DNA from: Octopus vulgaris
Taxonomy: Eukaryota
Length of the DNA: 64,000 nt
Direction of reading: 5' to 3'
Assembly: GCA_951406725.2 (NCBI GenBank)
Contig: OX597830.1
Coordinates: 25,792,001 to 25,856,000 of the forward strand
Below, in pieces: positions 50,337 through 61,130 of the stretch. The position numbers and the translations under genes are program-made. The notes below the pieces were generated by a model. That model was not told the DNA's origin. It made no database searches and was given only the letters and a program-made list of their open reading frames with translations. Numbering within the stretch: the stretch's first letter is position 1; each line of letters opens with the position of its first letter.

Positions 50337-50544
50337 ACACACACACACATAGAGTTTCCATGTACAATTCCTCTCACAAGACATGAAAGACACACAAACC
50401 AGAAGGTACCACACCGTAGGATGAAACTCGAAACTACGTCCTTGTGAAGTGATCCTCTTATCCACACAGCCAGCCATTTCCGTAGGCAAAGTTACGTGAA
50501 CGCCATAAGCGATGGCATGACTGTGTGGTAAGAAGCTTGCTTCC

Positions 50545-52453
50545 ACTGCGCATGTGCGAATAATTGTGGGGTTCGGCACCAAAGCGGTGAGACATGCTTT
50601 TGAAGCCGTCTCGAATTGAAAAAGTTTGAAGCTCCATTGTAAGGTAAGATTCTGTTTTTTTTTGGGGTGTCCAGTGGGAATTTTTGTTGAGAATTATTTT
50701 TGTACAGGCAGGAAGTCCTACTGGATTCAGAATTCTGGTTCTGCCTGCATGGAGCGAATATTTTTTTCTCGCAGAATTGTGAGAACTTTTGTTTGGGGGT
50801 TAGGGTTCTCCTTCCTAGTTGTCGGTTTATGTTGAGTTATTTTTCTCAATTATGAGAATTGTTGCTTAGTGGAGTATGGTGTCTACTAAAAATTTACTTT
50901 TTGAAGAATTTTAAAATAATTGTGAAAACTGCTGTTTGGGGGAGTGTCTTCGCCTCCGAAGATTAAACAATTTGTATACCAATTTTTGTGGAAATTGTGT
51001 TCCAGTTGTGGCGTGCCGGGTTCAACCTAGGCCGGGAGCACGGAATGGCCGGAAGATTTTTTTTGGTGTGTTTCTGAACTATTGAACTATTGACTTTCTT
51101 TCTTCATTCTTGTTTATTGTGACTTTCTTTTGATTTCTTATCTCTTATTAAGTTTTATTTTGAACATATTTTCAAAAAAAAAAGAAGCATGGCAATGAAA
51201 AAAGTCAAAGTTTTGGAGTGGGAGATTGTGCCGCCCCAAAGGTGGTTGAAAGACCGTGAAGATAGGACGGTGGTTTTGAGAACCTACTCCACGTCACTCG
51301 ACACCATCGCCCTGTTCGAAAAGACGGCAATTGAAAAGGAGTTGACAGAGTATTTGCCAACAATTAAATTCATTTACAGGGGTGTCAAATACTCAACTGT
51401 GTGGTTGCTATTTGATACCCCTGAAATGGCTCACAAATTTGCGAGTCAGCCCTTGGAGGGTGAGGAAATTTTACTTCTTCCCACGTACTGTGGGAGGAGG
51501 TTGACGAAAGCTGGGGTCTGCGGGTTGCCACCTGGGTAAAACCCGAGTGGATAGAGGAGACTATCCGCCGGGGTCTGGGTGGCAGCGGAACCAAGCTTCT
51601 TAATGTGAAAGTTCTTCCTGCGGCTGATTGGGTTGGGTCAAAAGCTGTTTTGACCCTTTGGACAATTCAGCCAATCTGGTTTTTCCAGATTTTTTGAAAA
51701 TGGCCGGATGCAGGTATCCGGTGATTCTTGAGGGTCTCCCCCCCCCCTCCAGCAGGTGTCATCGGTGCCTGGAGTCTGGCCATATAAAGAAAAACTGTCC
51801 CCAGGAACAAAATAAGGTCCCGCAGATAGCTGTAGAGGTCATAACGTTTGACGTGACGTTTATGCTGAAGGGGTTCAATGAGGAATATCGCTTGTACCCG
51901 GGCGATGCCGACACGGAACCCGCTTTGATCTTGAGTGAGGCGTGGAGGATGGAGGAGGATGCGGGCACAAGCGATGTTGAGGATGAGTTATAAATTGTGG
52001 CACTGTGTAATACAAACATTTGATAATAGGCACTTCGCCCTCTTCTTTCTCAACCTCCAGCTGGCAACGTGGACTGCTCTGCAGGCAGCTAGATATTTGA
52101 CTGGGGGTCCGGAAGGAGGAGGAGGAAGGGAAAAGTGATAGTGTATTTTTGATGTTTGATTGACTTATTGATGTTTATATAAGAAAAGAACCTGTGATTG
52201 AACTATGTTGTTGTTTGTAATGGACTGTTAAGTCCAAAAATTGAAAAGTAAAAGTTGTAAGAGGTTTAATACCCCGTTTTGTGTTTGGTTTTAAAGAACA
52301 ATGTTTTAGAGAAGCAGAAGTCGGCGGGCGCTTTTTGTCTTCTCCCATCTTTATCATCTTTCTTTCATTATCATTCATTTCATTAATGTCCTTGTTCAGC
52401 CCGCAAAGCTACTTTACTCTATGTACTGCCTTTATGGAAAATGCAATGAAATA
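50545..52453 (+). mobile_element. ORF1-only Tx1/L1-type element (HAL1-like) with 15-bp TSD, inserted in a SINE head
   Basis: TSD AAGAAGCTTGCTTCC at 50530-50544 and 52454-52468; ORF1-like protein in 51189-51993; AATAAA at the 3' junction; no RT. Confidence 0.8.
51189..51993 (+). pseudogene. Tx1/L1 ORF1-like protein (RRM-like region plus CCHC zinc knuckle), two frameshifts
   Basis: ...VCGLPPG/VKPEWIEETIRRGLG.../FPDFLKMAGCRYPVILEG...CHRCLESGHIKKNCP (CX2CX4HX4C). Confidence 0.75.
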
Positions 52454-52605
52454 AAGAAGCTTGCTTCCCAACCATATGGTTCGGAGTTCAGCCCCACTGC
52501 ATGATACCTTGGGTAAGTGTCTTCTACTATAGCCGAGGGCTGAGCTAAGACTTGTGAGCGGATATGGTAGACGGAAACCGAAAGAAGCCTGTCGTATAAA
52601 TATAT

Positions 52606-52928: not shown

Positions 52929-55245
52929 GATTGATTGATTGATTGATTCTAGTTTCAGCTTATGAGCTGTGGCCATGCTGGGGCACCGCCATTTGGTGTT
53001 GCTACTTGGTTTCACTTCATGGAGGCTTTCTAGCAACTGCTATTTGGTGCATGAGAGAGTTCGATGCAGCTGCCCTCATCTGCCCCTCCTGCCGTGAAGT
53101 TGGTTCATCTGGGACACCTGACAGGAAGAGATCCAGCTTCATTTTAAAGACATCTGTATCCACCCCATGCAGGTCTCTCAGGTTCTTCGGGAGGATATTG
53201 AAGAGCTGTGGGCCTCGGAAGCCCAGGCTATCACAGAATCTTGTCCTACATCTTGATGGCAGGTTTGGAGTCCTAGGCACCACGCAGTGGCGCCCAGTTC
53301 TGGCATTTGCGTAACTCTCGATGCCAAAGTTCAGGACACTTCCCTCCAGGATCTTCCAGATGTATATTATGGCATATCTTTCCCGCCTACGCTCCAGGGA
53401 ATATAATTTTAATCTCTTGAGTCTTTCCCAGTAGCTTACATTCTGCATAGAGGCTATCTTCTTTGTGTAGCTTCGTTGGATCGCCTCAAGTTCTGTGATC
53501 AACTTGACACTGGATGGTGACCATAGCTGAGAGCAATAGTCAAAGTGGCTTAGGACAAGTGTCTTCCAGAGGACCATCATGGTTTCTTGTTCTCTTGTTC
53601 TAAAGGTTCTAAGAATCCATCCAGCCAGCCGTCTACATTTCATTGTCAGTTTAGCAACATGTACATGAAAGGTCGCGTCATCACTCATGTGAATACCAAG
53701 GTCACGCACTGATTGTGCCTCTGGGATTGCAATCCCTCCGGGTCCAGTGTATTCATTGGGTATTGCATTCAGTTTTGCATGCTGATAGTATAAAGCTTGA
53801 AACTTTCCAGCATTGAACTGCATGCTATTCTTTTCAGCCCACTTGTATATTTCGTCCAGCTCACATTGCAGGTGTTTAGTGTCCTCAGGGTTCTGTATTG
53901 CCTGTGAGACTTTTGTATCATCTGCATAACTTGTGATCGTGGCTCTCTGCGTGGCTGAGGGCATGTCTGAGAGGGCCATTATGAACAGTAGTGGTCCCAA
54001 AACAGTGCCCTGCGGAACACCGCTCACTATTTGTGTGTTAATGGAGGTGGCCCCATTGGCTACTACCACCTGACTTCTATCCTTCAGAAAGTCATGAAGC
54101 CATTCTCCCAGTTTTCCAACTATGTTGAGATCACGCAGTTTGTGACATATCATTCCATGATCGACTTTATCAAAGGCCTTTGCAAAGTCGAGATATATCA
54201 CTTCCACATTTGAGTGGTTGAGCAGCCGTTTCAGCACCCAGTCATAGTGTTGTAGGAGCTGAGTTAAACAGCTTCTCCCTGGTCGGAAACCATGTTGGGT
54301 GTCGGGCAGCAAGTCATTCTCTTCAAGGAAGGTGATCAGCTTCCTTCTGACTATTCGTTCCATGACCTTGCTGATGTGTGAGGTCAGAGAGATAGGTCTA
54401 TAGTTCTTGGCTTCTGCTCTGCTACCTCCTTTATGAATGGGGCATATTTTACCTTCCTTCAGTTTTCCTGGAAGTTTGCCAGCTGCAAGGAAGCTCTGAA
54501 AGAGGAACTGCAGTGGTCTTGCTAGGACTCTCTTACATGCTTTTAGGAGGATTGCCGGGAATCCATCGGGGCCAGTAGCTGAGTCTGTTTTCATTTCATC
54601 TATAGCCTTGGTTACATCGTCTTCCTTTATATCGATGTAATCTATCGTCGCCGCCTCTGATTTTATATCTGCAGTGGTAAAAAAGTCAGTTGGATTGGTG
54701 ATTTGGAGATGCCCAAGGGGTGGAGTGAAAACACTCTTGAATTGCTCATTCAGTATTTCACTTACCCTCATTGGTTTTCCTGTAAGTGTGCCATCCTTTT
54801 CAAGGAGTGGCCCTATTCTACAGTGCACTGTAGCTGTTTCTTTGGCATACCTGTAGAAAGCTCTGGGGTTAGATTTTATGTTTTCTATAGCCCAGGCTTC
54901 TTTGTCTGCTCTTTCTTTTTCATGGGAGAGTTGCAGACATTTTTCGATTTCCAACAGTTTTATTTTTAGGCGGGACTTTTCACTGCTTTCAATCTGTTGG
55001 TTTAGGCGATTTGAAAATTTCGTACGCCGTCTCATTAAAATTTTCCTCTCTCTGGGGATTTTGTTCTTGTGTACAGTGGCCTTTCTCTCTGGGACACATT
55101 TGTAGCATATGGCTTGCATTACAGACATGAATTGTTGAAGTTTCACGTCGATGTCTGGCGAGGAGAGACATTCAGGCCAGTTTTGTTTGAGGATCTCTTT
55201 CTCAATTTGTTTCCAGTTTGCCTTATGGTAGTTCAAGCTGGAAAG
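52929..55245 (-). mobile_element. 5'-truncated CR1-like LINE with (AATC)n tail
   Basis: Open RT frame, short 3' UTR and (TCAA)n tail; endonuclease region absent. Confidence 0.9.
53017..55236 (-). CDS. Non-LTR retrotransposon ORF2 reverse transcriptase (CR1-like), N-terminally truncated
   Basis: NYRPISLTS, QHGFRPGRSC, YLDFAKAFDKV, SGVPQGTVLGPLLF, YADDTKV, RDLG, YWERLKRLKLYSLERRR; 739 codons without a stop. Confidence 0.92.
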   Translation of the reverse strand: MNYHKANWKQIEKEILKQNWPECLSSPDIDVKLQQFMSVMQAICYKCVPERKATVHKNKIPRERKILMRRRTKFSNRLNQQIESSEKSRLKIKLLEIEKCLQLSHEKERADKEAWAIENIKSNPRAFYRYAKETATVHCRIGPLLEKDGTLTGKPMRVSEILNEQFKSVFTPPLGHLQITNPTDFFTTADIKSEAATIDYIDIKEDDVTKAIDEMKTDSATGPDGFPAILLKACKRVLARPLQFLFQSFLAAGKLPGKLKEGKICPIHKGGSRAEAKNYRPISLTSHISKVMERIVRRKLITFLEENDLLPDTQHGFRPGRSCLTQLLQHYDWVLKRLLNHSNVEVIYLDFAKAFDKVDHGMICHKLRDLNIVGKLGEWLHDFLKDRSQVVVANGATSINTQIVSGVPQGTVLGPLLFIMALSDMPSATQRATITSYADDTKVSQAIQNPEDTKHLQCELDEIYKWAEKNSMQFNAGKFQALYYQHAKLNAIPNEYTGPGGIAIPEAQSVRDLGIHMSDDATFHVHVAKLTMKCRRLAGWILRTFRTREQETMMVLWKTLVLSHFDYCSQLWSPSSVKLITELEAIQRSYTKKIASMQNVSYWERLKRLKLYSLERRRERYAIIYIWKILEGSVLNFGIESYANARTGRHCVVPRTPNLPSRCRTRFCDSLGFRGPQLFNILPKNLRDLHGVDTDVFKMKLDLFLSGVPDEPTSRQEGQMRAAASNSLMHQIAVARKPP

Positions 55246-58487: not shown

Positions 58488-61130
58488 CTATAGTATTCCT
58501 TTTCTTATTTTTTCCTTCATAGTAGCATGATGTATACCATCTCCTTCGTTGATTCCTAGGTATTTGTAACTTTCCTGTGGGTCAAGTTCCTTGATGGTAG
58601 TGTCAATATCTAATTTAACAGAAGCTGTTTGCCTGAGCTTGCCTCTTACAAAAGTTGCTTTAGCACACTTATCAAGGCCAAAATCCATTCCGATATCATT
58701 GCTAAACTCTTTAACAGTTGTTAGCAGCCCTTCTAGCTCTTGGTCATTCCTGGCAAACAGCTTTAGGTCGTCCATATAGAAAAGATGGTTTATTAATTTA
58801 CTAAAAACTTTGTACCCATATCTAGTACTATCCAATTCGTTTGAGAGTGGGATCAGTGCCATGCAAAAAAGTAATGGAGAGAGGGAGTCACCTTGAAAGA
58901 TGCCTCGTTTGATGTTGATGCTGTTGGACTGGCTCATCCCATTACTATGGCTTAAAAAGAGACGTGTGTTCCACATGGTCATGCTATTCTCTAAGAATTT
59001 TGAGACGACAGGAGAGATCTTGTATATCTCAAGGGCCTTGAGTATCCATTTATGTGGGACACTGTCATACGCTTTCCTGTAGTCTATCCATGCCATACTC
59101 AGGTTTTTGTTTTTGCTCCGGCAATTCTCTACAATCATTCTGTTTATGAGCAATTGGTCTTTGCACCCATAAGAGTTTCTTTTACAACCTTTTTGAGCTT
59201 GTGGAAGGATAGAATTTTGTTCAAGGAAAGCGTACATTCTCTCCGTTATTATGGATGTGAGGATTTTGTAGGTGGTGTTGAGACATGTTATTGGCCGGTA
59301 ATTCTTTGGGTTTTTTGTGTCTTCGGTTTTAGGTAATAGGTAGGTGGTTCCTTCAGTCAGCCAAGCAGGTATTTGCTCTGGGTTCTGAATGACATCAGAC
59401 AGAGATGCAGCGAGATGTTCGTGTACCTCTGTCAAACAATTCAGCCAGAAGTTAGGGATCCGATCCAGTCCTGGGGTTTTCCATTTATGAGCCTTCCTAA
59501 GGACACACCTTAGCTCCTCTATTCCTATTGCTTCCCATTTCTGTTCTTCAAGTTCATCCAGTCTCTCTTTCTCACGTTCTATCCAGTCAGCCTCAGCATT
59601 AAACTCTTTTTCGTTGCTCCATACCTTCTTCCAGAACTCCTCCACTTCCTCAATCTTAGGTGGATCTTCTATGTGTATTTTATTTTTGCCAATTTCCCTA
59701 TAAAATTTCTTTGCATCTGTCTTAAAAAATTTATTTTGTCGATAAAATTTGTTTCTTTTGTCATACCTTCTAAGCCGTTGAGCTTTCAACTGTATCCGTT
59801 GTTTCAACAGTTCCTTAGTTGCAGGGAGGTTTATGAGATCTTTGATTTTATATTTTTGCTTGATTTTTCTAGCTTTTCTCGGCTTAATATTCACTCCTCT
59901 AGCAAGCTCATCGAGAACTGAAACATCCGTCCGCAGAGATTCAATCTCTTTTTGTATCGCTACTTTCCACTTAGGAGGTTCATTGACATGCCTGGCCTTT
60001 TTCTTTGTCATCTTAATACCTAGTTGGGTAGTTACTACTTTAGCAGTGGAATAAATGAGATTATTTAAGGTTGTCAAATCATTCCCCGTATTTCTTAAGA
60101 TCTGTCCTAGGGCAACGTTATATGTCATGATTGTGTTGTTATTTCTTGTGCCATTTGAAAACTTTGGTAGTGGTTCTCTATTAACCATGTCAGTGAGCTC
60201 AATCTTGCCGAGTTCTCTCATAATGTCCACTTTTGCTTCCATAATCTTTTCTCTATTATTCACCTCAAATTCTATGTCATATCTATTTTGGTTTTCTTGA
60301 GGAAGGTCTACGTTCTCCTCTGTTTTCAAATCTCTCGTCTTCGCTATTCTTTGTTTAACTTCCCCATTGGGAAGTTGATTTGCCGCTTGTACACTGGCTT
60401 CTGTGCTACTGTTACCTATTTCGTCTACATTGTTGCTGTTTTCTTTTGGTCTACCATGAGCTATCAGTGTCCTAATTTTGTCAATTTCAGCGTCAGTTAG
60501 TCTTTTGTTTTTAATTATATCTCTGCGTACATTACTTAATTTATTTGCGTCTATATATCTACGTACGTCATTGCCTACTGAATTTCTCCATGAGATGTAT
60601 GTTTGTACACTGAGGTTATTATTTGGGTTTAGTTGGGCTGTATAAAAAGCTTTCAACACATCTCTATAGTCCTCTCTGGTCCATTTTATACGTTTTGCTT
60701 TAGGTGGTGTTTTTGGTGGTGTCACTGCAAGTCCAGAGTTAGAAGTATTCTGGTTCTGGTCACCTGGTAGATCGTCTTTTTGAGAGTTTGTTCCAGCAGC
60801 AAACTTTTCGACCCCAGTCTGGTTCCCTACTGGGTAACGCGGTCCTTGTTGTCCCGGGCGATGACCGATCCGGCATGATTTTTGGCTTGTTTTCATTAAA
60901 TGATTGACGGCGACATCAGAGGGGTCCATTTTTTCAGAGTCAACTTTTTGACAAGACGCCGCCTCTGTGACGGTGTCGTTAGAAGAAGGGAGTGTTTGTA
61001 CAGGGTCAATTTTCTGACAAGACACCGCTTCTGAATTCTCCGAATTAATATATTGTTCATATCGAACTCGCATAAGACTTACAGATCGAAATTCGCCTCT
61101 ATTTATTTTGGTAGTCATATTTCCGGGCAT
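58488..61130 (-). CDS. R4-clade ORF, N-terminal region and RT
   Basis: KRIKWTRE N-terminal motif, PGLDRIPNFW, YRPITCL, QKGC, WIDYRKAYDSVPH, GIFQGDSLSPLLF, FYMDD, GLDKC, YKYLG. Confidence 0.92.
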   Translation of the reverse strand: MPGNMTTKINRGEFRSVSLMRVRYEQYINSENSEAVSCQKIDPVQTLPSSNDTVTEAASCQKVDSEKMDPSDVAVNHLMKTSQKSCRIGHRPGQQGPRYPVGNQTGVEKFAAGTNSQKDDLPGDQNQNTSNSGLAVTPPKTPPKAKRIKWTREDYRDVLKAFYTAQLNPNNNLSVQTYISWRNSVGNDVRRYIDANKLSNVRRDIIKNKRLTDAEIDKIRTLIAHGRPKENSNNVDEIGNSSTEASVQAANQLPNGEVKQRIAKTRDLKTEENVDLPQENQNRYDIEFEVNNREKIMEAKVDIMRELGKIELTDMVNREPLPKFSNGTRNNNTIMTYNVALGQILRNTGNDLTTLNNLIYSTAKVVTTQLGIKMTKKKARHVNEPPKWKVAIQKEIESLRTDVSVLDELARGVNIKPRKARKIKQKYKIKDLINLPATKELLKQRIQLKAQRLRRYDKRNKFYRQNKFFKTDAKKFYREIGKNKIHIEDPPKIEEVEEFWKKVWSNEKEFNAEADWIEREKERLDELEEQKWEAIGIEELRCVLRKAHKWKTPGLDRIPNFWLNCLTEVHEHLAASLSDVIQNPEQIPAWLTEGTTYLLPKTEDTKNPKNYRPITCLNTTYKILTSIITERMYAFLEQNSILPQAQKGCKRNSYGCKDQLLINRMIVENCRSKNKNLSMAWIDYRKAYDSVPHKWILKALEIYKISPVVSKFLENSMTMWNTRLFLSHSNGMSQSNSINIKRGIFQGDSLSPLLFCMALIPLSNELDSTRYGYKVFSKLINHLFYMDDLKLFARNDQELEGLLTTVKEFSNDIGMDFGLDKCAKATFVRGKLRQTASVKLDIDTTIKELDPQESYKYLGINEGDGIHHATMKEKIRKGIL

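Follow-up and report, generated by a model that had tools for sequence, protein, structure and literature searches.

The window, by which we mean the whole stretch of 64,000 nucleotides of Octopus vulgaris DNA analysed here, contains the 15-mer AAGAAGCTTGCTTCC at 50530-50544 and an exact second copy at 52454-52468, with 1,909 bp between the pair, just as the initial annotation had it. With up to two mismatches, this word has eight matches in the window against a chance expectation of 0.11, and most of them are SINE copies. The insert had been placed inside a SINE, and this is confirmed on both sides (all features of the insert and its host given here are on the plus strand). It is preceded by the degraded 22-nt 5' part of a SINE head with a degenerate A-box-like word (50508-50529), the same head being found before other copies, and the SINE picks up again downstream, where 52454-52592 matches positions 23-161 of an empty SINE copy at 83%. 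The 3' copy of the 15-nt target (52454-52468) is host SINE DNA, and the remaining host SINE (52469-52592) has a B-box-like word near 52484-52494, a body and then (TA)n. The host may belong to the octopus OR1/OR2/OK SINEs; a repeat search of the window returned microsatellites only. The A- and B-box-like words of the SINE head were recognised by eye. The head has no match to Rfam RF00005, and its similarity to nine tRNA genes of the genome is weak (z 0.6-5.3, best Glu(TTC)).

The insert itself (50545-52453) is a decayed and internally deleted copy of an ORF1-only non-LTR element. Its leader, annotated as a 5' UTR of about 640 bp, is 644 nt long (50545-51188) and starts with TGCGCATGTGCG, a palindrome-like word common to several sister families. 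The ORF1 remnant (51189-51993) runs from the first ATG at 51189 to the last stop at 51991-51993; it is split over three frames, with frameshifts, an early stop at 51537-51539 and, near 51820, a deletion of 468 bp that are present in relatives and retained by the other scored copies. The 1,909 bp are therefore not the length of the family, which is 2.1-2.65 kb. The expected CCHC motif was recovered as a zinc knuckle at 51757-51798 (PF00098, E 0.0015, under the Pfam cut-off), and the insert holds neither an RT nor an endonuclease, in agreement with the first reading.

The 3' UTR, put at about 460 bp before, is exactly 460 nt long (51994-52453). It does not have a 0.3-kb segment of the sister copies L003 and L011, which in them contains an internal tail and target copy. 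Several non-coding mini copies of about 0.5 kb start at that internal target copy (L038, L048, L222, L236, L239, L244), and the master of the window's subfamily is a tandem chimera of two elements. Near the 3' end of the insert are a short word roughly complementary to the target (52403-52414), with one mismatch to the target variant of the window family, and the terminal motif (52427-52453), a GCC-N5-GGC hairpin with one stem base mutated here followed by an A-rich end. The AATAAA reported at the 3' end is present and spans the 3' junction; the insert has no poly(A) tail. The 5' copy of the target (50530-50544) is of the kind that in full-length members was probably copied from the element's RNA, and the apparent 15-bp duplication of the window is probably in part the element's own 5' end.

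The ORF1-only family and its candidate partner

Relatives of the insert were found by a genome search to be 79-87% alike across the first 1.28 kb (40 of 3,286 candidates scored). The annotation had asked whether other copies share the ends and the lack of ORF2: among 29 further loci, those copies that keep both ends have a length of 2.1-2.65 kb, with no space for ORF2. Since the relatives have this length with both ends intact, the ORF1-only structure is a family trait and not a one-off deletion, and the window holds a decayed copy of such a family. Among 80 loci read with 7.5 kb upstream of each, L1-type RT and endonuclease words occur in one element only, the partner described below. The copies show the traits of non-LTR elements inserted by TPRT, namely a fixed 3' end, variable 5' truncation and, off target, duplications of 14-17 nt.

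An autonomous Tx1-type partner was looked for, as the annotation had suggested, and found as a young LINE of about 5.45 kb with the same target and tail. At L102 a 5.4-kb element of this kind sits at the target in tandem with ORF1-only copies. Its ORF2 carries APE, RT and zf-RVT domains, and its ORF1, which aligns with the ORF1-only protein, has a knuckle with PF00098 at cut-off. The best PDB match of ORF2 is human L1 ORF2p (229 bits versus 73 for R2), the nearest named ORF2 is from Argonauta hians (63%), and the searches for ORF2 homologues returned no match bearing a Tx1 name. The partner is of the L1/Tx1 type, and its anatomy (APE, RT, C-terminal zinc domain, target preference) would place it in the Tx1 clade in the strict sense. 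Among the 87 matches listed, most are 95-99% identical. All of the best 20 copies are at the target, and ORF2 is open over 1140-1150 aa in seven of them, two of which also have an ORF1 frame of 487-488 aa. There are 108 exact partner tails, and the first 30, which were read, are all on target; for ten more diverged ORF2 matches, the target follows the 3' end in eight and is missing in two.

The suggestion that the partner is the family at 1-520 of the window (plus strand) did not hold. This piece is 66-70% (nucleotides) and, at the C-terminus, 45% (amino acids) identical to the real partner, and was rejected: it is what deletion has left of the 3' part of a more distant Tx1-like ORF2, and it does not have the shared tail. 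Two more coding stretches that resemble an RT, with 22-25% identity to that of the partner, lie on the minus strand of the window at 53908-54948 and 58668-59564. Elsewhere, a fragment of another Tx1-like RT lies upstream of the host SINE at L016:1-760 (minus-strand reading); its 3' end is different.

The hairpin GCC-N5-GGC and the A-rich end are common to the partner and to all ORF1-only families read. A perfect GCC-N5-GGC is present in 234 of 243 ends, with 12 loop variants, and its closing pair is T-A in 225, C-G in four and G-C in one, this conservation being partly by construction because the tail motif was derived from the same data. Folding of three tails gave z scores of -2.0, +0.6 and -0.5. 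GCTTC tails are followed by AAGA in 16 of 18 AAG[A/T] ends, the tail word changing with the target; such tracking was rejected for the window family, where 40 AAGA ends carry the AAGT-type word.

The shared tail, the shared target and the tandem arrays suggest that the ORF1-only elements are mobilised in trans by the partner ORF2p. What counts against the pairing is the difference in target variant, AAGT for the young partner versus AAGA for the window subfamily. The only AAGA-type autonomous relative found is L113, a single internally deleted copy, and a search with it for an older AAGA-type autonomous family returned younger families.

Target site in the SINE head and the 5' junction

Targeting of the SINE had been proposed from the window alone, and it is upheld by the family: the same SINE position follows each of the 26 other copies whose 3' end is visible. 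An exact 35-nt pattern of the 3' end finds 82 ends genome-wide, 75 of them at one base of the SINE head and seven elsewhere, and these seven begin with a word resembling the start of the target. With a looser tail motif 610 ends were found (control, 0); among the first 100, a script placed 81 on target, three more are on target once a small indel or deletion is allowed for, and the other 16 are off target, most of these with an AAGT start. The off-target sites have a start of 4-6 nt in common. Exact empty target sites number only 95,013 in 2.8 Gb and exact filled junctions 1,445, which corresponds to an occupancy of about 1.5% by these strict patterns.

The target variant differs between families. 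Window-type tails are followed by AAGA in 35 of 38 cases, AAGA being present at 24 of the first 100 empty sites, and the sister tail type is followed by AAGT in 43 of 44. The enzyme's preference at the time, the age of the SINE subfamilies or RNA pairing could each be the cause of this tracking. At L092 an element has inserted past the B-box-like word, at a second AAG site of the SINE body. Two element ends at L192, less than 8 kb apart, point in opposite directions, and each has a target of its own. Targeting of tRNA genes, the other possibility raised initially, is unsupported, the flanks that were read giving no example; of 30 tRNA loci, the 28 scanned contain whole tRNA genes, but these loci had been picked as intact and so say nothing on the question. 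At L256 seven tRNA genes or pseudogenes, six of them called Cys, are clustered in 3 kb.

The 5' junctions were parsed with three of 98 skipped and a few more doubtful. Among 50 young full-length copies, all from the two youngest groups, 47 have the family variant as their 5' target copy; a family variant on the 5' side is combined with the other SINE variant on the 3' side in 11, whereas the reverse combination is found in none (p 0.001). The 5' repeat follows the element family and not the host SINE, and therefore was probably copied from the element RNA. Such one-way swaps of diagnostic bases, seen in young copies that are 95-99.5% alike, speak against the chief rival explanation, according to which the system is the same but the 15-nt repeats are ordinary duplications, the endonuclease alone is specific, full-length copies arise at perfect targets, and differences between the two target copies are later mutations. 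Rare bases of the 3' copy recur in the 5' copy in only three of 44 cases for full-length elements versus nine of 11 for truncated ones (hand tally; p 2e-6). The three shared bases lend the rival some support, as do the rare bases found on one side alone in full-length elements, whose numbers are similar for the 5' copy (28) and the 3' copy (41). Because of these 28, part of the mismatch between the copies is later mutation, and much of the unshared variation may be of this origin; the overwriting of the 5' copy is best shown at positions 11-14.

The length of the copies bears on the same question. In a sample of 80 loci, copies longer than 1.4 kb make up 37 of 50 on target versus none of nine off target, and none of the 12 off-target copies with a located 5' end exceeds this length overall. 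The internal target copy in the 3' UTR of the window family is the exact starting point of at least five stand-alone 0.5-kb copies. The absence of long off-target copies and these repeated short ones speak against ordinary duplications; in favour of them, the short start common to the off-target sites is as an endonuclease preference would give. On the whole, we consider it unlikely that the repeats are ordinary duplications.

A DPE-like word at +29/30 from the start of the target is present in 14 of 36 distinct 5' ends and fits an RNA start near position 2. The window 5' UTR and its family do not have this word, which counts against the proposed start. In the partner's first 500 nt, Rfam returned no ribozyme match and nothing above chance. 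From the junctions we infer an RNA start inside the target copy, where the cDNA would then pair with the top strand that has been cut.

The preferred reading, which we hold with good confidence, is that the insert is a dead copy of a SINE-targeting ORF1-only family, likely mobilised by an L1/Tx1-type LINE with the same target and hairpin. A Pol II transcript would start inside the 5' target copy, and the element RNA would be coated by its own ORF1p. The partner ORF2p would bind the GCC-N5-GGC hairpin, nick the bottom strand at the junction of GGT and AAG and begin reverse transcription from the A-rich end, and a cut of the top strand about 15 nt downstream would produce the 14-17 nt duplications. 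On reaching the target-like 5' end of the RNA, the cDNA would pair with the cut top strand, which could explain both the precise full-length joins and the presence of the element's version in the 5' copy. Each insertion would leave an intact target, and tandem stacking could result from this.

Origin of ORF1 and of the individual insertions

Young ORF1-only copies have open frames of 415-435 aa. The intact protein consists of two predicted RRM-like domains, the CCHC knuckle, a basic low-complexity linker and a small C-terminal region. Pfam recognises the zinc knuckle only; the structure model (mean pLDDT 61; about 70-90 at residues 21-210, with low confidence in the C-terminal region) matches two tandem RRM folds (Z 8-10), with the knuckle after them. 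Whether ORF1 has a dN/dS below 1 had been raised as a check, and the estimate agrees, although the window copy itself is broken: omega is 0.267 for 13 natural copies and 196 codons (against omega 1, 2dlnL 237), a value somewhat lowered by picking copies for an open frame. Pairwise omega between ORF1-only families is 0.07-0.28. ORF1 of these families is under purifying selection.

The ORF1-only proteins form a clade of their own with at least six families, which are 65-92% identical to one another's reference, in a tree that left out the more distant short families L020, L138 and L163. Their identity to the partner ORF1 is only 23-29%. The nearest protein, 74% identical, is from Octopus sinensis (gene model LOC115225585; P0137), and this gene model is probably an element copy. 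One can imagine that the ORF1-only copies are not families in their own right but arose from the autonomous LINE by deletion and were dead on arrival, and internally deleted autonomous derivatives do occur (L113, L116, L153). However, the low identity to the partner ORF1, the separate clade, the fixed lengths and ends, the open frames of the young copies and the omega of 0.27 make such an origin very improbable.

Older copies (L002-L030) mostly break ORF1 at one shared poly-C run before the knuckle and also at poly-A runs of the basic linker. For the young ORF1-only copy at L203:1330-3760, depth was found in 30 of 30 bins, the contigs coming from runs whose labels name three other organisms; these contigs are short pieces of at least 85% likeness that are unable to show RNA starts.

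The insertions were independent of one another, since truncated copies, from 36 bp to 1.2 kb, retain the SINE head and the duplication, 12 off-target copies carry their own 14-17 nt duplications of unique DNA, and the host SINE bodies are more diverged than the inserts in all four groups (0.805 alike versus 0.960 for the inserts in the window subfamily; 0.941 versus 0.995 for the elements in the young partner group). Later amplification of one insertion as a composite SINE-insert-SINE unit, which would make targeting unneeded and agrees with the tracking of SINE variants by element subfamilies, is refuted in substance by these truncated and off-target copies and diverged hosts, as well as by unrelated families and the autonomous LINE being stacked in tandem at the same base, and is hardly credible.

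Head-to-tail arrays of at least two elements from different families in one SINE were read at L091, L102, L006, L020, L171, L187 and L204, and three partner copies are in tandem at G000:C9:2664555-2679058. The smallest insertions, of 30-44 bp (L036, L098, L162, L144, L159), consist of the tail hairpin and end only and have full duplications. At L044:1440-1620 a SINE head of one variant is joined directly to a 40-nt tail, followed by the target of the other variant, which is possibly a template switch onto SINE RNA. Among the loci read this is the only such join of head and tail, and the idea that the SINE itself carries the LINE tail found no further support there, the window host and the reference empty SINE both ending in (TA)n.

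A broader reading, which we offer tentatively and rate below an even chance, distinguishes three tiers: a SINE with about 100,000 landing pads, a Tx1-type LINE that targets them, and an old, independently selected ORF1-only clade that travels with the LINE; all would bear the target at the 5' end of their RNA, this copy helping to choose the SINE variant and rewriting the site. If true, it would mean an RNA-assisted choice of target by an APE-type LINE that follows the turnover of SINE subfamilies.

Relation to known targeted and ORF1-only LINEs

The targets of Tx1 elements recorded in the consulted portions of a Tx1 survey are DNA transposons, LTR elements, microsatellites and snRNA genes (PMC4494074). 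Examples given there are Xenopus Tx1 in Tx1D, the crocodilian Tx1-Mar in Mariner-N4_AMi, Tx1-8_Crp and Tx1-4_AMi in LTR elements, Tx1-9_AMi in Harbingers and Keno in U2 genes (PMC4494074). The octopus system resembles them in having an APE-type LINE with a fixed site in another multicopy element and non-autonomous passengers (SINEU in their case) that share its site preference. It differs in that the target is a SINE head and the passengers are protein-coding ORF1-only families; the same portions of the survey name no SINE target and no mollusc family. Tx1-clade ORF1 combines RRM and CCHC, according to the part consulted of PMC5203782, and the partner would fit this type by its own PF00098 knuckle and by its alignment with the ORF1-only protein, for which tandem RRMs are predicted by modelling. 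For Octopus vulgaris, a repeat annotation lists 13 recently active L1-Tx1 families (PMC13282606), and the section seen gives L1-Tx1 counts without a target site or an ORF1-only class.

LINEs with ORF1 only are represented by HAL1 (L1), HeT-A (Jockey) and Ag-Sponge (CR1), as stated in the sections consulted of PMC5786205 and PMC5753468, which name no ORF1-only Tx1 derivative. Like these, the octopus families encode only ORF1p, have a LINE-like 3' end and would depend on the ORF2p of a partner. Unlike them, they have an ORF1 of separate descent, divided into at least six families and only 23-29% identical to that of the partner, and they insert site-specifically inside a SINE; HeT-A is also targeted, to chromosome ends (excerpt of PMC5537684). 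HAL1 derives from mammalian L1 (PMC5753468, in part), and the octopus families are not HAL1 proper, since their ORF1 has two predicted RRMs and a CCHC and its closest protein is from octopus.

ORF1-only LINEs and transposon-targeting Tx1s were thus already known, whereas the literature searched yielded no case of a SINE target combined in this way; Repbase, which was outside this scope, may hold it. With our data, the range of sites hit by Tx1-type LINEs extends to a SINE head, and the short list of ORF1-only passengers to Tx1-type elements. Intact young copies of both partner and passenger in one genome open two questions to experiment: why selection should maintain an ORF1p of its own in a non-autonomous element, and by what route the 5' junction of an APE-type LINE is finished, a step in which a target-like sequence at the 5' end of the RNA seems to decide full-length insertion. 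Two cautions can be added: a target-site duplication that looks exact may include element sequence, and copies of such an ORF1 end up in annotations as host genes, as with LOC115225585 of Octopus sinensis.

With regard to the junction, the closest parallel is R2, whose RNA carries target sequence that affects junction precision (PMC6795142 and PMC3414825, in the parts consulted). R2 relies on a restriction-like nuclease and a ribozyme-cut rRNA co-transcript, whereas the octopus system, with no Rfam ribozyme match, is based on an APE-type LINE and a 15-nt duplication. What it has in common with R2 and the R2/R1 SIDE elements, as far as these sources go, are non-autonomous derivatives that share the site and, probably, a target sequence on the RNA tied to junction precision.
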